Source: Rhynchobatus australiae (Eukaryota). From it: a stretch of DNA of 64,000 bases. The notes under the pieces were generated by a model, which had not been told where the DNA came from, ran no database searches, and saw only the letters and a list, made by a program, of their open reading frames with translations. Below, one piece after another: positions 7,281-55,057 of this stretch. The DNA lies in the NCBI GenBank assembly GCA_034780895.1, contig JAUZTB010000118.1:69655974-69719973 (forward strand), read 5' to 3'. The position numbers and the translations under genes are program-made. Every line of letters starts with the position of its first letter. The stretch's first letter is position 1.

Positions 7281-8339
7281 ATGTGTCCTGAAAGATAACA
7301 CTTCTGGGAAACACACCCACCCACATTAGGAAAAAGTACACCATCAGGTCCAGAGTTCACTAACGTTAATAAAAATTAAGCTCTCGTGTCCTTGTAATCA
7401 TTGATTACAAGGCCCCACATGACACCGCTGCCTTTTGAACTGAGGGATGTTTAAACTCGTGATAACATTGCAGATTATTTTTGTTTTGATTTTTTTAGTA
7501 CATATTCCAAATCATCAAGTATCTGCATTATTGAAGGTAATTTTAAGTGCAGTGTAACACCTAATTGTTTTATTTGTTTGTGGCAGTCAGCCAGGGAGAC
7601 TTCCAACGTATCATCCAGCCCATTTTGTGATTAATACTACCACTTTTAATATCTGTATTGAGTCAATACAGTATTTGGGACGTTCCCTGGAAGATTGTTT
7701 AGAAGTGAATCATACTTCTTGAATGGGATTTTATTTAAAGCAAACTCTACCACCCTGTTTCAACTTCAAAGGTCAACAAAGCCACTAAACCCTCTCTTCC
7801 TGATCCTTTTATGGCCTTTTCTGCTTGCACTACAACAACATATAAAGTGACTTGCCTTTATTCTGCATTACTGGGGTTTGATAAGGGGGAGGGGATGGGC
7901 AGACTGGATAAATGTTCGTGAACAAAAAAGCTGGAGACATTTTCAATTGATTTGCTGTGCAACTATTTCACTGGCTGCAATTTTTAAGCAGATCTATGGC
8001 ATTTAATTGTGTAATGCTTGTTATCATTGTAATTGTTTCACTGCCTCTGGTACATATTACTGACTAAAATACCCAAAATCAAGTTACAATTGGCAGAATT
8101 TGCCAAGCGACAGATCAATCTCTTTTACAACATATATAGTTTTGTGCAGACTCTTCTAAAGAAACTGAAGAAGGTGTCATGGGACATGATGATACTGCAG
8201 AGTATGACAGAGGTGGTTGAGCTCTTAATGAATTAAGGGCAGGGCGCCCAGTTTTCTAGATCATTTGAGGGTGGGCATGTTTGCTTCAAGGAGGTGAAGA
8301 ATCAGGCTTCATAGTTAAATTGGCTCCACTCCAGCAGTA

Positions 8340-8483
8340 ACACACAAACTGCTGGATGAACTCAGCGGGTCAGGCAGCAGCTATGGAGAGAAATGGACAG
8401 TCGACGTTTCGACTCGAAACCCTTCATCAAGACCAGCATTTTGTGTGTTGCTCCAGATTTCCAACATCTGCAGTCTCTCTTGT
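8340..8483. mobile_element. PLE mini-insertion with inverted 5' segment and 16-bp target duplication
   Basis: CTCCACTCCAGCAGTA at 8324-8339 and 8484-8499. Left arm is the terminal repeat in minus orientation (hammerhead-like 8435..8398); right arm is its 3' end in plus orientation. Confidence 0.85.
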
Positions 8484-11864: not shown

Positions 11865-12056
11865 CAGCATGGTAACAGGCCCTTTTGGCCCAACAAGTCC
11901 TTGCCTCCCATTTTAAACCCACGTTAATCTACCCATACGTCTTTGGAATGTGGGAGGAAACTGGAGCACCCGGAGGAAACCCACGCAGACACGGGACAAC
12001 GTACAAACTCCTTACAGACAGCAATGGGAATCAAACCCCGATCGCTGGCGCTGTAT
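11865..12056 (-). mobile_element. V-SINE (HE1-like) with CR1/HER1-type 3' tail
   Basis: V-domain GGAGTTTGTACGTTGTCCCGTGTCTGCGTGGGTTTCCTCCGGGTGCTCCAGTTTCCTCCCACA; tail GGGCCAAAAGGGCCTGTTACCATGCTGTA. Confidence 0.85.
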
Positions 12057-13989: not shown

Positions 13990-15060
13990 TTAACTTCAAG
14001 AGGAATGCAGGGAGCAGTATCAACCACGATATATGGCCTCTCAAAAGGTTTTGACTCCAGTAAGTTAAGAGGGACTATGAGCATTCTTAAACACATTCTT
14101 CATCTCAAGTCTGCTCCATGACAGCATGCAAGCCATGGCCTTAAACCGTTGGGTCTACAACAGGCTCAGCCTTAGAGAAAACTGGTGTCAAGCAAGGCTG
14201 CAACATTAACATCAAACATTTTTGCTGCACTCTGCCCCCAAAAGGTCAAATGGAAACCTTAAGTTGCCTCCAGGACCATGGTCACCCCAACTTCAATCAT
14301 CGAACTGCAATATACAAAAAAATGGCTATTTATAAGATATCTTTATTAGTCACATGTACATCGAAACACACAGTGAAATGCATTTTTTGCATAGAGTGTT
14401 CTGGGGACAGCCCGCAAATGTCACCATGCTTCTGGCGCCAATAAAACATGCCCACAACTTCCTAACCTGTACGTCTTTGGAATGCGGGAGGAAATCAGAG
14501 CACCTGGAGGAAACCCACGCAGACACGGGGAGAACGTACAAACTCCTGACAGACAGTGGCCGGAATTGAACCCAGGTCGCTGGCTCTGTAATAGCGTTAC
14601 GCGTACCGCCACACTACCGTGGTGAGACACAGTATGTGCATGTCTGGAGTCCTTGCTCCAAGCTTTCACCAACTCATTCCCTGAAGCATGCAAGAGAATG
14701 GGCCTTACACTAAACAACCATACATTAGAGACCTCCAGCTTCCTACTTTCCCCAACTGCAGACATTCTATTCCAAAATCTTTTCACAGCAAGGGATTACC
14801 AAGTGAACAGGGGAAACAATTCATGGATGTTCTCAAATCTTCCTTGTAAAGTGCAACAATTTGACCAGCTCAAAGGAGGCACAGTCAGGATGGCTTCAGA
14901 AGCCTCATGCGAAGGGCAGAAAGAACGCACAACCTCCTAATCTACCCACCCACCCATACCATTATCTTCCGCAATGCCCTTGTAAACCAACTCAGAACCC
15001 ATGGAACAAATGTGGAAGCAAATCGTCCTCGTGTGATTGTCTTAAAACGTTTCATCCTTA
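13990..15060 (+). mobile_element. RTE-clade LINE RT relic split by a V-SINE
   Basis: LSKGFDS (DL.KAFD-like), TGVKQGC at 14181-14201, LQAFTNSFPEACKRMGLTLN after the SINE. Confidence 0.65.
14332..14621 (-). mobile_element. Full-length tRNA-derived V-SINE with Rex-Babar-type tail, inserted into an RTE relic
   Basis: tRNA-like head with A-box-like TAGTGTGGCGG and B box GGTTCAATTCC (14572..14562), V-domain, tail TTTCACTGTGTGTTTCGATGTACATGTGACTAATAAAG. Confidence 0.88.
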
Positions 15061-23579: not shown

Positions 23580-25380
23580 CTTGATTGTTTTGAGAAATAG
23601 ACACATTGAAATAGTTTCCCCAGGAGACTATTTGAGGTATAAATAAGGAAGAAATAGGAGTAGTGAAGCCACACCAGTCTAATCTCTGTTGCCATGACAC
23701 CTGCCTCTAAGATTTGAAAGTGTACAGACTGCCTGCTAAACAAAACTGTTGAATCTGAACATTTGGCTGAGAGATTAAAAATAAGCTTAGGGGAGCAGGG
23801 AGCAATGCTTTTTTGCATTTCATACAGCCTGTGAATCCAATCAAATGGTCCTGAAACTTTAACCACAGCCATTGTGAAGAACAGATGAGAGCAAGTTATC
23901 TTGATACTTAAAGGAGATTAAAACGGTTCCCAATTTGCTTACTGTTGGAAACCAAGGTAAAACAATTTGATTGGAGAATTGTCAGACATGTCAAACAGTT
24001 AGCCAATCTTCTTAATTCCAAATCTGTTTAGATACCCTTCTCGTGACTAATAGACTATGAACATTAGCCTCTGCACCTTGCTGTTTAAATCTTTATTAGC
24101 ATCTCAATGTCTCCTTGAAACTGTTTCCCTGGCAATAAAATTAATCAAATAAAATACTGTCTTCCATGCCAACCAGTCTTGCTGCTGTCTAAAGTTTCCA
24201 ACAATAGTATCAGCAGAAATGCAAAGGTCATCACCTCAACAAGCTGGGAATTCACTTTACTCTATTATGCACTGAGACAAAATCCTCTCCAACTCGACTG
24301 ACCACTTCCATCACAGGGAATCAATTTATTGAGTTGAATGGGAAGGGAAAGGTTGAAAAGTAGATCACAAGGTGCTGGGCAAACTATATTAAAAGGAAGT
24401 AATTACTCTGAAAGGACTAAATTATTCAACTTTTCTTGACCAAAATTGAAGTAGAGCACAAAAGCTTCACTATGCACGACAACACAAAGCAGTTCTCAAC
24501 TCTTAACAGTGGTTTAAACGTTTTGTATATCTTATTAGAAATAAGGAACTGTTAGGATTTTGTTTTAGGAAAGGTACGGACATTGTTTCAAAACCAGCAT
24601 CAACAATAATCAGTCAGCTTCTTAAAATGGCACAATTCCTCTGACCTCATAATTATCCAACAAACAATAGATCCGAGCCTCCTGAGAAACTCCACAGTCT
24701 TTGGATAATTATCAACATACCAGAAGCCTGGTTACACACCAACAATGGAAGGCAAGGGCAAACTTCCCTTTCACACTGAATCTACAAAACAGATCATCGT
24801 GCCCACACTGATGTTAATAAAATACCAGGCACCATTCGGCCAACCCTGCATTCATAAAAGGCAAGACTGGTGCAGCCTTTATGAAGGCGTTTAGTGTGCT
24901 ATTTGATTACAAAGCACCTCCCCCACCCTTTAGGCAAACAGCAGTGATCACAATAACCTCATTTCTCTCCAGCTGCGGGTCTTACTCCATTGTTTGTGTG
25001 TATGATCATTACACCAGCCTGTTATTTCACACAAACAAGAGAAAATGTGGAATTTTCTCTCTTATTGGAGAGCTCCAAGGCCATGCTAGATACACCGATG
25101 CACAAAGTAATGGTCACAATTCGTGCTGTTAAGACAGTCGTCAACAGTTAAGAAATATAACCACAAACCCTTTCCATACCGTCGTCACCCGCAGGTTATT
25201 ACTGAGGTGCGTTCAAATTATAGCAGATATGCAAAAAGGCGAGCATTATCATTCCTCTCGCATTATTCATCCCGGTGCATCGCTCACATCCACACAAGTA
25301 GGCATGATTTTGTTGTTTTTATTATTATTTGCAAAGAATCCAACAACAAACAAGGCAGCAGAAAGTAAATAACGAGTTAC

Positions 25381-25799
25381 CTTTTCGGTTTTCAGTTTCT
25401 TGATGGGTCGAGCAGCGTCTCCGTCAGTCTCTGCATCCTCTTTCTTGGCCACGATAGGGCTGCTGAGGATCCCCGGCTCCAGAGTAGTTTTGATGTCCTG
25501 GACCCGGGGCGAGGGCTCTCCGGCGCCTCCGCCGCACTGCAGGGAGCTGCTGCCGCCCTTGGGGCCGAAATTAAAGAGGTGCGCGGCGGCTGAGCCCGCT
25601 ACCGACATGGGGGGCTGGCCCGGGATCGGGTGCACCCCCACATCGTGTTTAGTGCTATCCTTGCGAGACCTGCCACCCTCCTTATCCCGCTTAGAGCCTC
25701 CCCTGCCCGAGCCCTTGCCCGGTTTCTCTTCTTTGTTTTTAGTGCAATTGCCAATTGTGTTGTTGCAGTTATTGTTATTATTAATATTATTGCAACCAC

Positions 25800-25830
<31 letters not shown>

Positions 25831-26316
25831 AACTGTTTGACCCAGGGCTGAATTCATGCCAGAAACCTCTCCAGGGCGCCCTTGAACTTCCTGCCTCTTG
25901 CCAGCACTGCTAATTTCAGGAATCCCATACAGTGAGGCAGAGGAGAGAGATTTATTAGCATCCTTGGAAGTTTTGCTTCTTTTCACTTTGGATTTGCCAG
26001 TCTCCTTGTGGGAATTTCCTTGGGGAGGCTGGACGGAAGAGGAGGTGAATTTGAGGCTATCGGAAAGGGCTGCTGCTGCTGCACTAGCTCCACTTGGAGC
26101 CAATCCCCCGCAGTCCTTGGTGGTGTTGGTTGCAATGGTGTTGTTATTGCTGCTCGAATTATTCATTTCCAATTTCTGCCTGTCTTTCTCCAAATCGGCC
26201 TCCAAATCGATGATCAGATTTCCCACTCCAATTTCCCAGTCATCGCCACTGTCGTAAGTATCAACCGCGTTTGAATCAACACATTTACCAGTAGCAATGG
26301 AACTGTTCACTGACAT
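25381..26316 (-). CDS. ZNF608: Zinc finger protein 608, first coding exon (312 codons, phase-0 donor)
   Basis: Translation [51 protein letters not shown]...[23 protein letters not shown]...[21 protein letters not shown]...IKKLKTEK matches the vertebrate ZNF608 N-terminus (recognised from memory, closer than paralog ZNF609). Donor AAG|GTAACT at 25381/25380. Confidence 0.96.
25400..25720. other. CpG-island-like GC-rich segment inside the first coding exon
   Basis: Dense CpG (e.g. cggcgcctccgccgcac, gcgcggcggc) against a CpG-depleted background. Confidence 0.55.
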
Positions 26317-26381
26317 CCTGAAGATGAGATCTCTTGGATAAAAATTGGATGAACTTCACTGCTTTGGATCTGGGGGGACAT
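26307..26381 (-). other. Out-of-frame upstream ORF (24 aa) overlapping the ZNF608 start codon
   Basis: ATG at 26381 reads [27 protein letters not shown]; the stop (26309..26307) lies inside the main CDS. Offset from the main ATG is 65 nt. Confidence 0.6.
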
Positions 26382-29300: not shown

Positions 29301-29966
29301 TATCAGAAAACTGATCTTGCCTTAGAGAAAAAAGGGGAAAAAAAACTTGAGGTCTGCAGTTTTGAACAGGGGCGAAAAATCTCTTAGGGGGCTGTTAACG
29401 ACTTGGTCAGAATAAGCACAAACCTTTAGAAAGCGCTGCGTGTCCCTTTCATATCAGCGATAAAACGGGAGGGGGAATCATTCGTGATCGACAGTCGTAA
29501 CTGCTTATTAAAGTCAACTTCAGCAAAACTTGTCGCTATTTACAAGCTCAAGTTAGCACGATTAATGTCACGAGGGACCAAAAGCCAAAATAGAAGCATT
29601 TGTATTTATTTATTTTTTTAAAAATCGTGAACGTAAAATAAATAGGGANNNNNNNNNNNNNNNNNNNNNNNNNNNNNNNNNNNNNNNNNNNNNNNNNNNN
29701 NNNNNNNNNNNNNNNNNNNNNNNNNNNNNNNNNNNNNNNNNNNNNNNNATTTTTTTAAAAATCGTGAAAGTAAAATAAATAGGGAAACAGCACAGGATAT
29801 AACTTTTAAATCAACAGAATGAATCAAAACTATTTCTATTCAATTATAGCTCCATCTTATCAAAAAAAACTCAGGAGGGCGAGTAAAAGGAGAATTCTCT
29901 TGCCAAAATGCAATCTCTGGTGTGATTGATAAAACTTTGCTAAAGATTATTGTATAATATACTCAC

Positions 29967-33600: not shown

Positions 33601-34865
33601 AACAATAGTTTGTGCCAGACAGTTCCAGATTCTGACCATCCTCTCTATAGAGAATTTGGTTCATAATCTCGCCTGTAACACATCATATTATATGCTCTCA
33701 TTTGTCTGTCTCCTTGGTTAGAGTGAGCTGCACAGCACCTGCCAGAAAAAGAACTGAAATCCTGGCTCTCTGCTCCCTCCTTTGAGGTTGAAGTCATTGT
33801 ACCAGCATTTGCACTGGGGCTGTAGTCTTTGAACCAAAGTATCCAAGCCAATATATATTAGTTTCAGGCCCAAATATCATTCTTTCCTGATTCATATTCA
33901 AAAGACTATATTTGCATATCTGTATCTTTCTTCTTACAGTGGTTGAAATTCCTAGTAAACCCACTGGACCGAGTTCAACAACCAGATTTATGCACCAGCA
34001 GGGTGACTCAGTAATCTGGTGTCCCCAGTGACACTTACATTGAGCACATCTTGCTGGCTTTGTCAATTGGTTCAATGTAATTGAAACAAAAAATCCCTTC
34101 CGTTCTCATAAACTGTCATTGACTGATGCAACCAGAAATGTTTTTATTACACAGCGCTGTCTTCTAAACATGAAAATAAAAATATAAAACCTGTCTAATT
34201 TTATGCATCACTGCTTTTAAACATGGCATTCCAGAATAGTGTAAACATTTTAAAAACAGAATAGAAATGATATTTTCCTTTGGTAATTTTAATTTTTCAT
34301 TTCCACTGTATTTTTAAAATTCAGTTTTATTTTATTCTTTGTTACTAGAAATGGTGGCAATAGGCTTATTCAAATTTTGGTTTAGAGGAAGATCAATCAG
34401 ATTGCAAAGCTACTTTAACAGGCTCTGATGTCTGTTGATTTGAAACAAACCAGTGTAAGTGGTATTTGAACCCCACTTTTCTTCCTGCCAGTTCACATCC
34501 AACCACATTTTAAATTGTTAACGCATGTTGCCCTGCAAGTGCTGTATGAACTCACTGACACTCCACATGGTGCATAACGCCCAATATTTTTATGACCTGT
34601 ACTTTCCTTATCTGTGTTCCTTTTCCCAGTATCACTATTTGGCTTGTCCACAAACACCCAAGCGCAACCAAGTGCAGAAAAGAATTGACTTTACTGTGTT
34701 TTAATAATGCTTTGACACATTGATAAAAAATCATTTTCAGCATTATCCACCCAAACTTCTTGATTTCCCATTTCAATAACTTTTTGATGATTTTTTTTTT
34801 CTCTCTCAGCAAGTCCCATTGGGGTGTATCATGGGCTGTAGAGACGGAAAGATATCACACTTCTG

Positions 34866-35155
34866 CCAGTCCTGATGAAGGCTCTCAACCTGAAATGTCA
34901 ACTGCCCATTTCCCTCCATTGATGCTGCCTGACCAGCTGAGTTCCTCCAGCGNNNNNNNNNNNNNNNNNNNNNNNNNNNNNNNNNNNNNNNNNNNNNNNN
35001 NNNNNNNNNNNNNNNNNNNNNNNNNNNNNNNNNNNNNNNNNNNNNNNNNNNNCCAGTCCTGATGAAGGCTCTCAACCTGAAATGTCATCTGCCCATTTCC
35101 CTCCATTGATGCTGCCTGACCAGCTGAGTTCCTCCAGCGCCTTTGTGTGTTGCTG
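34866..35155 (+). mobile_element. Two tandem PLE terminal-repeat copies with hammerhead-like cores, separated by an N gap
   Basis: CAGTC-CTGATGA-AGGCTCTCAACCT-GAAA-TGTC at 34867-34899 and 35054-35086, followed by the same GATGCTGCCTGACCAGCTGAGTTCCTCCAGC segment seen at ~36708-36737. Confidence 0.8.
34867..34904 (+). ncRNA. Minimal type-I hammerhead ribozyme-like motif (best-preserved core in the window)
   Basis: Stem I CAGT(C)/(A)ACTG; core CUGAUGA (34872-34878); stem II AGG/CCT; GAAA (34892-34895); GUC triplet (34897-34899). Activity is untested. Confidence 0.5.
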
Positions 35156-35275
35156 AAAAATGGACATAGTAGTGTAAAGTTACTGGAAAGTTAGCCAGAG
35201 TTCATAACCATTAATTTAGGGACATGGATTTGAATCCCATGGCAACTGGGGAATTTACATTGAAAGGATTAAGTA

Positions 35276-35945
35276 TTGGGATTGGAATTGGTTTATTGTT
35301 GTCGCATGTATTAAGGTAAAGTAAAGAGCATAGTTTTACAAGCCATCCATGCAGATCATTTCAAAACATAAGTACATTAAAGTAGTACAATGGAAAAGCA
35401 ATATCAGAATGGAAAATGTAGTGTTACAGTTACAGAGAGAGTGCAGGGCAGGTAGACAATAAGGTGCAAGGGCCATGCCAAGGTAGATTGTGAGGTCAAG
35501 CGTTCATCTGTAGCATACAAGAGGTCCGTTCAAGAGTCTTATAACTGTGGGACAGAAGCCATCCTTGAGCCTGGTGGTGAGTGTTTTCAAGCTTTTGTAT
35601 CCTCTGCCCAATGGGAGAGGAGAGAAGAGAATGATGGGGGAGGGGTCTTTGCTTATGCTGGCTGCTTTTCTGAGGGAGTGAGAAATGTAGACAGAGTCCA
35701 TAGAGGGGAGGCTGGTTTCCGTGATGGAAACTGTGTCCACAACTCTCTGCAATTTCTTGCAGTCTTGAACAGAGCAGTTGCAATACCAAGCTGTGATGAA
35801 CCCAGATAGAATGCTTTCTATGGTGCATCGATAAAAGTTGTCAAGGGTCAATAGGTGCATGTCAATTTCCTTAGCCTGCTGAGGAAGTAAAGGTGCTGGT
35901 GTGCTTTGTTGGCCATAGCGTCTACGTGGTTGGACCACATAGATG
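35276..35945 (-). mobile_element. Rex-Babar LINE 3' end nested in an older SINE-like element
   Basis: LDNFYRCTIESILSGFITAWY...LPLGRGYKSLKTLTTRLKDGF; tail ...AATAAACCAATTCCAAT. Confidence 0.85.
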
Positions 35946-36226: not shown

Positions 36227-36750
36227 CGCAGGTTGGAGGAACAACACCTCATATTCCGCATTGGGACTCTCCAACCTGATGGCCTCAACATTGATTTCTC
36301 TAACTTCCGGTAACTCCATCCCTTCTTTTTCTCCCCCTCCCCATTCCTTTGTCTTCCTTTATTCCTATGGCTCCCTTCCCCTGCCTTGATGACCTGCCCA
36401 TCTCCTCTCCTCTCCTCCCCCATCATTTATTCCATGGTTCACTGCCCTCTCCTACTGGATTCCTTCTTCTTCAGCCCTTTGCCTCTTCTACCTATCACCT
36501 CTCAGCTTCTTACATCTTCTCCCTTCCGTCACCGACCTACCTTCCCACTCTCACCTGGACTCGCCTATCACCTGGACTCGCCTATCCCCTGCCTGTGTGT
36601 GCTCCTCTCCCTCCCCCAACCTCCTCATTCTGGCTTCTGCCCTCTTCCTTTCCAGTCCTGATGAAGGGTCTCGGCCCACTACATCGACTGTTTATTTCCC
36701 TCTATGGATGCTGCCTGTCCTGCTGAGTTCCTCCAGTACTTTTTGTGCAG
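36227..36750 (+). mobile_element. Penelope-like element 3' end (GIY-YIG endonuclease C-terminus, pyrimidine-rich 3' region, terminal repeat with degenerate hammerhead motif)
   Basis: 36227-36313 translates RRLEEQHLIFRIGTLQPDGLNIDFSNFR*, the typical PLE GIY-YIG C-terminal motif (LIF.LGTL.P.GLN). A C/T-rich tract follows, then CAGTC-CTGATGA-AGGGTCTCGGCCC-actacatc-GACTG at 36653-36690. Confidence 0.85.
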
Positions 36751-43745: not shown

Positions 43746-44384
43746 GCCTTTTTAACCACTTTGTTTTATTTGTCTTGTTACACAAAGGAATTTGTTGACA
43801 TGCTCTCAGGAATCTAAACTTCATTGTATCCTACCATTTATGGTAAATTTTCTTATCTCTTTTCTCCTCCCTAGAATCATCACCTCACAGGTTTCTAGAT
43901 TTAAATCCATTTGCCACTTTCAAACACATTTAACCTGTCCATTGATATCTTCCCATGGCTGAGAATTTCCTTGCTGAATTCCTTGCCTTCATTTCTTTAT
44001 GACTGTACATTCTAATTCTCAATTATTTAACCTTTGAATCTCCTTTTGTTCAACCACTCATTCACTTCTGCTCTCAAAATGCTATTTTCATTGGAACCTT
44101 CACTGTCACATGTCCCTGATTTTTCTTTGAGTAAATTACCAATATCTAGCTCTTCAAATTCTAAATCCACATATTAATGCATGTACAGCACACCATCACC
44201 TGTTCTGAATGGAAATGCATCACCTGTATTGTGCTATATTGTTCAATGGTTAAATTCTGTGGGACCACTGATAAGGCTAATAGGCTACCTGGTGTTCCAG
44301 CATCATTGTACGGGGAAAAGTTAAGAATAGGCTTTGTTCTTCACCTCCTCCTTGACCTTAATCTCTGCCTCACATTCCTCACCT

Positions 44385-45184
44385 CATTGGAAGTTGGATC
44401 CTCAACTTCCTCATTGGGAGATCACAGACAGTACGGATCAGTAATAACATCTCCTCCTCACTGATCATCAAGACAGGCACACCTCAAGGATGTGTGCTTA
44501 GCCCACTGTTCTACTCTCTCTACACTCATGACTGTGTGGCTAAGCACAGCTCAAATGCCATCTATAAATTCACTGATGACACCACTGTTGTTGGAAGAAT
44601 CTCAGATGACGATGAGGAGGCTAACAGGGGTGAGTTCGATCAGCTGGTTGAGTGCTGTCGTAACAACAACCTCGTACTCAACGTCAGCAAGACCAAGGAA
44701 CTAACTGTGGACTTCAGGAAGGGGAAGTCGGGAGAACACAAACCAGTTCTCATCGAGGGGTTAGGGGTGGAAAGGGTGAGCAGCTTCAAGTTCCTGGGTG
44801 TCAACATCTCAGGATCTATCCTGGGCCCAATGCATTGATACAATCATGAAGAAGGCATGCCAGCAGCTCCACTTCATGAGGACCCTTACAAATTTCTATA
44901 GATGTACAGTGGAGAACATTCTGATTGATTGCATCACAGCCTGGTATGGAGGCTCCAATGCCCAGGATTGCAAAAGTCTGCAGAGGGTAGTAGACTCAGC
45001 CAGTTCCATCACAGGCACAACCCTCCTCACCATTGAGGACTTCAGGAGGCAATGCCTCCAGAAGGCAACATCCATCATTAATGACCTTCACCATCCAGAA
45101 CATGCCGTCTTCTCATTACTACCATCAAGGAGGAGGTACAGGAGCCTGAAGACCCACACTCAATGATTCAGGAACAGCTTCTTC
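44385..45184 (+). mobile_element. Rex1/Babar-clade LINE reverse transcriptase fragment (frameshifted)
   Basis: [15 protein letters not shown]...[21 protein letters not shown]...[10 protein letters not shown]...[15 protein letters not shown]...FKFLGVNIS, then LTNFYRCTVENIL...LLPSRRRYRSLKT. Confidence 0.9.
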
Positions 45185-51266: not shown

Positions 51267-51562
51267 TAAGATAAGCTGTCTTTATTAGTTACATGTACAT
51301 CAAAACACACAGTGAAATTCATCTTTTGCGTAGAGTGTCCTGGGGACAGCCCGCAAGTGTCGCCACACTTCCGGCGCCAACATAGCATACCCACAACTTC
51401 CTAACCCATACATTTTTGGAATGCGGGAGGAAACCAGGGCACCCAGAGGAAGCCTACTCAAACACAGGGAGAATGTACGAACTCCTTACAGACAGTGGCC
51501 AGAATTGAACCTGGGTCGCTGGCGCTGTAATAGCATTATGCTAACCACTACACTACCGTGCC
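51267..51562 (-). mobile_element. Full-length V-SINE, same subfamily as 14332-14621
   Basis: Colinear high similarity with the 14.3-kb copy across head, V-domain and tail. Confidence 0.88.
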
Positions 51563-54594: not shown

Positions 54595-55057
54595 GGAACT
54601 GGAATTGGAATTGGTTTATTATTGTCACTTGTACCAAGGTACAGTGAAAAACTTGTCTAGCATACCGTTCATACAGATCAATTCATTACACAGTGCATTG
54701 AGGTAGTACAAGGTAAAAACAATACAGAATGAGGAATAAAGTGTCACAGCTACAGAGAAAGTGCAGTGCAGGTGGACAAAAAGGTGCAAGGTCATAACGA
54801 GGTAGATTGTGAGGTCAAGAGTCCATTTTACCATAATAGAGAACCATTCAATAGTCTTATAACAGCAGGATAGAAGCTGTCCTTGAGCCTGGTGGTACGT
54901 GCTTTCTGGCTATTGTATCTTCTGCCTGGTGGGAGAGGGGAGGAGAGAGAATGTCCGGGGTGGGTGGGGTCTTTGATTCTGCTGGCTGCCTTGCCGAGAC
55001 AGTGAGAAGTATAGACAAAGTCAATGTAGGGGAGGCTGGTTTCTGTGATGTGCTGAG
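54595..55057 (-). mobile_element. Rex-Babar LINE 3' end
   Basis: Same family as 35276-35945; tail TTTTCACTGTACCTTGGTACAAGTGACAATAATAAACC(AATTCC)n. Confidence 0.85.

Follow-up and report, generated by a model that had tools for sequence, protein, structure and literature searches.

The sequence at 34866-35155 of the window, the whole 64,000-nt stretch of Rhynchobatus australiae DNA analysed here, most probably represents a single decayed 3'-terminal fragment of about 100 nt from a Neptune-type Penelope-like element (PLE), written twice around a 100-N gap where two overlapping contig ends probably went unmerged. The earlier note had described it as a minimal hammerhead ribozyme motif with a tandem, potentially dimeric pair of copies cleaving after C34899 and C35086. 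Its coordinates were accurate: the CTGATGA cores lie at 34872-34878 and 35059-35065, C17 at 34899 and 35086, AUGU replaces ACGU in both copies, and the minus strand reads ACGT at 8404-8407. The remnant of a GIY-YIG C-terminus also occurs at 36227-36313, followed after 347 nt by a family copy. The parts of the locus and of its neighbours are collected in Table 1.

Table 1. Hammerhead-bearing PLE copies of the window and their parts
Feature	Position	Strand	Basis
Short 3'-terminal Neptune-type PLE copy (hammerhead and downstream block), ended by the left contig end	34866..34952	+	sequence
Stem I 5' arm CAGTC; site where family 5' ends pile up	34867..34871	+	
Intact CUGAUGA core, followed by the additional A usual in minimal hammerheads of PLEs	34872..34879	+	published consensus
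Stem II with two damaging changes, G10.3>C (34882) and C11.1>U (34891)	34880..34891	+	
GAAA, then stem III without a loop (ACGU decayed to AUGU), then C17	34892..34899	+	
Stem I 3' arm carrying G1.1>A	34900..34904	+	
100-N scaffold gap; flanking contig ends overlap by 87 nt	34953..35052	.	
Duplicate of 34866-34952; one difference, T35088 versus A34901	35053..35139	+	
3' terminus of the copy; coincides with the nearer of the family's two common end points (about +95 from C3)	35140..35155	+	
C-terminus of a PLE GIY-YIG domain (28 codons and the stop), from another insertion that is truncated at its 5' side	36227..36313	+	
Pyrimidine-rich spacer, from GT at the stop codon to CAG in stem I; putative intron	36310..36655	+	
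Hammerhead and downstream block of the GIY-YIG-bearing insertion; GAAA replaced by ACTA	36653..36748	+	
Further short family copy; ACGU intact, C3>U, stem II broken	8338..8433	-	

The CTGATGA 7-mer alone occurs at chance level in the window (15 versus 13.2 expected). In the 2.23-Gb genome, the intact canonical hammerhead pattern has 1,500 exact matches and the reversed pattern none. A profile built from natural copies gave 211 matches in 911 kb of non-N sequence, about 230 copies/Mb (0 for its reversed control in the first 578 kb), and extrapolation leads to roughly 0.4-0.5 million remnants genome-wide. The master sequence is a minimal type-I hammerhead with a stem I of 3-5 bp, a stem II of 4-5 bp and a loop-less ACGU stem III, and it lies 260-400 nt behind the GIY-YIG stop codon. 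Longer copies extend upstream into the GIY-YIG domain, the CX4CxxC linker and reverse transcriptase (RT) motifs. The earlier note was right to see a type-I minimal hammerhead in a Penelope-like terminal repeat, which belongs to the published class of PLE minimal hammerheads (Cervera and de la Pena, 2014). Fishes, coelacanth, frog and reptiles have been reported to carry this class in their Neptune and Poseidon elements.

RT motifs, the CX4CxxC linker and a GIY-YIG-type stretch were found together in loci L137, L155 and L165, and CX4CxxC precedes the GIY-YIG motif in L012, L155, L165 and others. Neighbours of the linked open reading frame in the Atlas carry HTH_animal, GIY-YIG and RVT_1 (score 0.94). 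By motifs and Atlas neighbours, an RT followed by a C-terminal GIY-YIG domain, the arrangement of endonuclease-bearing PLEs, lies upstream of the hammerhead repeat. Pfam gave nothing significant for the six proteins scanned, and the PDB search returned no significant match. A Zn-finger-like CX2-5CxxC linker between RT and endonuclease marks Neptune, which shares it with Nematis, in the available text of PMC8557442; the family is therefore called Neptune-type, an assignment that draws on motifs, Atlas neighbours and this linker rule rather than on an RT tree. An endonuclease remnant lies upstream on the same strand in 29/29 subfamily A, 7/25 D, 9/24 E, 2/25 C and 0/25 B loci, and in none of the eight loci of set F, the nearest relatives of the 34866-35155 copy.

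As is known for PLEs, the copies are 5'-truncated, may have inverted 5' arms and carry an optional tail of 30-40 nt. An inverted tail arm lies directly 5' of the minus-strand copy at 8338-8433, and 32 of 57 neighbour pairs within 600 nt are head-to-head. The 3' ends form two peaks near +95 and +130 from C3. A full junction between the terminal repeat (pLTR) and the open reading frame was not found, since 274 complete tails had no common downstream sequence beyond three pairs. A related PLE lineage (L171, L215 and about seven sampled copies, e.g. L095:4051 on the minus strand) has only 38 nt from the endonuclease end to the hammerhead core, and it is without the GT and the pyrimidine tract. In one short contig (L137/L139, G000:C4089), a 376-codon frame that contains RT occurs a second time in the opposite orientation, reflecting either two PLEs in inverted arrangement or a fold-back in the assembly. 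The window also contains another dispersed repeat of about 290 nt, SINE-like in appearance (14332-14621, 51271-51560 and 11931-12055), as well as remnants of LINE-type RT 3' regions (35277-35900, 54600-55050 and 44362-45166), which we take to be CR1/L2-like and one of which immediately follows the 34866-35155 copy.

The supposed tandem or dimeric pair is most likely an unmerged contig overlap, the duplicate spans coinciding with the two contig ends at the gap. The duplication comprises precisely the 87 bases that precede the 100 N and the 87 that follow them, 86 of the 87 being identical. In a survey of the window, with the gap at 34953-35052 included, and about 1 Mb of other genomic stretches, contig ends overlapped by at least 15 nt at no less than 90% identity at 27 of 119 gaps of exactly 100 N, compared with 5 of 254 other gaps (Fisher p=2e-10). 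Five of the seven end overlaps near the window had exactly one mismatch, as expected for unmerged alleles. From these gap statistics, 35053-35139 and 34866-34952 are likely the same locus, probably represented by its other allele, and once merged 34866-35155 is one copy of about 103 nt. Logan contigs from four runs over 34300-35500 yielded no piece spanning the gap, the signal being swamped by other family copies; hence we infer a single copy with some force rather than demonstrate it directly.

The coincidence of the duplicated span with the contig ends, the same signature at many 100-N gaps in unrelated sequence and the broken structure of both copies (an AUGU self-duplex at +2.6 versus -1.7 kcal/mol for ACGU) make a real tandem able to fold as a dimer, whether a nascent non-LTR retrozyme or a partial PLE tandem, very improbable, even though two near-identical copies do stand in the assembly, true direct neighbours exist elsewhere (L170; 15 same-strand pairs within 600 nt with no N between them) and the available part of a preprint reports tandem retrozymes in one chondrichthyan genome (bioRxiv 2026.07.22.740005). 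Like the family here, the non-LTR retrozymes of animals are, in that part (bioRxiv 10.64898/2026.07.22.740005), pLTR-derived, non-coding and equipped with a type-I hammerhead. They form tandem arrays of consecutive units with at least two complete hammerheads, whereas both copies at 34866-35155 are broken and the apparent tandem coincides with a contig-end overlap.

Other close pairs were seen in the assembly. Within the window, 29612-29785 shows a second apparent duplication across a 100-N gap (37 nt, one mismatch) in unrelated sequence. Two more family hammerheads are duplicated over 100-N gaps (L084 1500-1730 and L311 1932-2182), indicating that apparent tandem pairs of this kind recur. A real direct tandem without a gap is present at L170 4608-4867 on the minus strand, where a subfamily A copy with an intact hammerhead and a B-like copy lie 163 nt apart. 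Same-strand pairs of intact D-type hammerheads occur at G000:C1:2828230/2828306 (76 nt apart) and G000:C2:515704/516075 (371 nt apart), and these are better candidates for true dimers than the 34866-35155 locus. Close hammerhead pairs over 100-N gaps are often false in this assembly, a warning that bears on retrozyme and dimer counts.

The copy at 34866-35155 is very likely inert, judging from its letters and predicted fold. Its nearest genomic relatives are 89-94% identical to 34866-34952. Compared with the subfamily A majority, 6 (left copy) and 7 (right copy) of 38 positions differ; one difference is a normal U-A variant of stem II, and the remainder comprise G10.3>C and the decay of all four CpGs (in the loop and at C11.1, C15.2 and G1.1). 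Pairs are lost in all three stems, mostly via CpG decay, including the base pair beside the cut site, which is lost because of G1.1>A in the stem I 3' arm. The hammerhead fold was calculated at +1.6 and +2.7 kcal/mol for the two copies, whereas a natural copy with an intact motif reached -10.5. Shuffled sequences fold as well as these two copies do (z=-0.1 and +0.1). A minimal hammerhead descriptor demanding intact stems I and II and a palindromic stem III fails for both copies, and scanning with Rfam covariance models detected no hammerhead in the window at E<=5. Cleavage after C34899 and C35086, as the earlier note had supposed, is therefore unsupported, given the unfavourable fold energy and the stem mutations G1.1>A, G10.3>C, C11.1>U and C15.2>U. 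By eye, no clear target-site duplication was seen at this copy. A large coding exon at 25267-26355 on the minus strand is ZNF608/ZNF609-like (Atlas first match 0.94, of low recognition value). Its position about 8.5 kb away might suggest that the host co-opted the copy as a regulatory ribozyme near this gene; with exon and motif on opposite strands, the stems broken and a fold no better than shuffles, such co-option is extremely improbable.

Five subfamilies (A-E) were sampled at 24-30 loci each, and all of them keep the hammerhead geometry. The majority sequences of A and D are full minimal hammerheads, with CUGANGA-H, G10.1-C11.1, GAAA, a palindromic 15.2-16.2, UH and at least 3 bp in stem I; B deviates at A9, E at U4, and C has U at 11.1. 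The pair C2.1-G1.1 of four subfamilies is U-A in subfamily C (T in 23/24, A in 23/24), the pair 10.4-11.4 is U.G or U-A, and in D the variation at N7 and H17 stays within the consensus. Helix changes amount to one two-sided (2.1-1.1) and one one-sided (10.4-11.4) case in five subfamilies; so few lineage events speak for selection but fall short of proof. Subfamily E carries U4A (CAGAUGA) in 24/25 loci (L246-L270), with 22 of the 211 matches assigned to it. Subfamily B carries A9C or a G8-C-A9 bulge (CUGAUGC-A) in 23/24 loci (L171-L195), with 41 of the 211 matches assigned to it and 149 otherwise intact matches genome-wide; with endonuclease remnants at 0/25 loci, it is possibly non-autonomous.

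The earlier note had named a lack of excess conservation in the core over the flanks as a refuting outcome, and no such excess was found among genomic copies: in subfamilies A, D and E, changes at non-CpG sites numbered 27/326 in the core versus 113/1392 in the flanks in the unbiased set (p=0.91), and 29/800 versus 146/3554 at the top-match loci (p=0.62). The strict descriptor is passed by 2 family copies among the 211 matches. Together these results indicate that the copies decay neutrally. For the family, catalysis might now be largely dispensable, the fold being kept mainly within the promoter or RT-binding region of the terminal repeat. In favour of this, the core-changed subfamilies E (U4A) and B (A9C or bulge) were amplified widely, the subfamilies agree about equally well over the block at +51..+82 (23/32 invariant) and over the core (9/11), and, in the available text of PMC11167929, ribozyme mutants of an anole element had no effect on insertion in vitro. 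Nevertheless, compensatory and allowed-position changes preserve the geometry in each of the five subfamilies, activity may persist in the U4A and A9C/bulge variants, and the anole ribozyme cleaves once protein is added (PMC11167929, same portion), and we consider dispensable catalysis unlikely.

Cleavage by the family master sequence is plausible. Such motifs have been proposed to need a second copy for stem III and to cleave weakly (PMC4209133), and in the anole element, as far as the available text goes, cleavage requires the element's protein and uncut RNA is the main substrate for insertion (PMC11167929). By analogy, only weak cleavage would be expected of the master motif, two copies together forming stem III and the element protein probably helping. 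A dimer model may hold for the master RNA; nothing at 34866-35155 demonstrates dimer cleavage. Among upstream-anchored copies, 21/22 run through the cut site and end at +89 to +146, indicating that the reverse-transcribed template RNA was uncut there. The cut site had no excess of 5' ends (8 events over 978 nt at risk), and no cleavage-defined copy end was seen among the copies examined. The copies would have been dead on arrival, made by target-primed reverse transcription that began in the tail, 3' of the hammerhead; the 34866-35155 copy would be an inert product of this type.

New here is that 5' ends pile up not at the cut site but on the 5' edge of stem I, where transcription may start. 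Scorable 5' ends were obtained for 181 of the 211 matches, 30 being dropped for adjacent N, low score or a short 3' part. At -7..0 from C3, i.e. in the stem I 5' arm, 40 ends fall in 858 nt, compared with 77 in 7,499 nt nearby (about fourfold, p=3e-12); simulated uniform truncation gave a flat profile. The excess persists without seven copies apparently belonging to the short-spacer family (p=6e-9) and in the four best-defined subfamilies alone (p=2e-5), and the 34866-35155 copy has a 5' end of this type. The site reads YCAGTY in all five subfamilies, its CAG being invariant even where the pairing partner is not, and it resembles what we take to be the initiator consensus. By hand count, G precedes A in 50 of the first 100 listed junctions (152 matches) versus a background of 30-35%. 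Of 30 inspected junctions, 15 are inverted, so that the G is possibly templated, and in the non-inverted ones (8/15) the signal is weak (p=0.05-0.11).

A transcript start is the preferred reading of the pile-up, with dissociation of RT at the stem I base as a close rival. In its fuller form, which is put forward tentatively, transcripts would start at the A of YCAGTY, and RT primed in the tail 100-140 nt downstream would run off the capped 5' end, leaving very many solo copies of 100-140 nt, the one at 34866-35155 among them; the CAG may double as a retained-intron acceptor. The spacer starts with GT at the endonuclease stop codon in 23/49 A-assigned, 7/8 D and 3/7 E loci, and its 3' end consists of a pyrimidine tract and CAG. 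These bounds suggest a putative intron beginning at the endonuclease stop codon. Against this reading, the published consensus, as given in the available text, already includes a U-rich 5' flank. No spliced genomic copy was found, the junction pattern matching once genome-wide, in an unspliced copy. An in-frame read-through after splicing was dropped, D and E having stops.

With the published PLE minimal hammerheads, the family shares CUGANGA followed by an extra base, G10.1-C11.1, GAAA, a palindromic loop-less 15.2-16.2, a short stem I and a U-rich 5' flank, and the copies are likewise mostly solo, decayed and often in opposite-strand pairs. The 1,500 intact motifs, counted with a single pattern, are similar in order of magnitude to published numbers for coelacanth and Xenopus. 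Unlike the published examples, stem II is short here (4-5 bp). Among the published alignment rows available for comparison there was no cartilaginous fish, and the U4A and A9C/bulge variants were absent from them. In Poseidon PAc of Anolis carolinensis (Frangieh et al., 2024; PMC11167929), the accessible portion describes, as here, a hammerhead just upstream of two 3' ends about 35-40 nt apart (the tail) and uncut RNA as template; by contrast, the present family has a Neptune-type CX4CxxC linker and is known from sequence alone. In the Penelope pLTR of Drosophila virilis, according to the available text (PMC2377424, PMC4209133), an intron end maps to helix I, at its 5' end, which is also where the GT...CAG bounds would place it in the present family, and introns are retained in genomic copies, as would hold for the putative intron. 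The transcript start there lies 46 nt upstream of a 75-nt intron (PMC2377424, PMC4209133, same portions), whereas here the spacer measures 260-400 nt and the 5' ends cluster at helix I. No description of this PLE family or of a 5'-end hotspot was found in the literature search; repeat databases (Repbase/Dfam) and supplements may name the family.

The locus itself matters little, being a dead copy of a published motif together with an assembly duplication. The family offers leads on vertebrate Penelope transcription and on the need for the ribozyme, namely the hotspot at the stem I 5' end, the possible intron bounds and the amplified U4A and A9C variants. If the tentative start-site model were true, the copies would provide a genome-scale map of the 5' end of a vertebrate PLE RNA, and the ribozyme would be a cap-removing switch.
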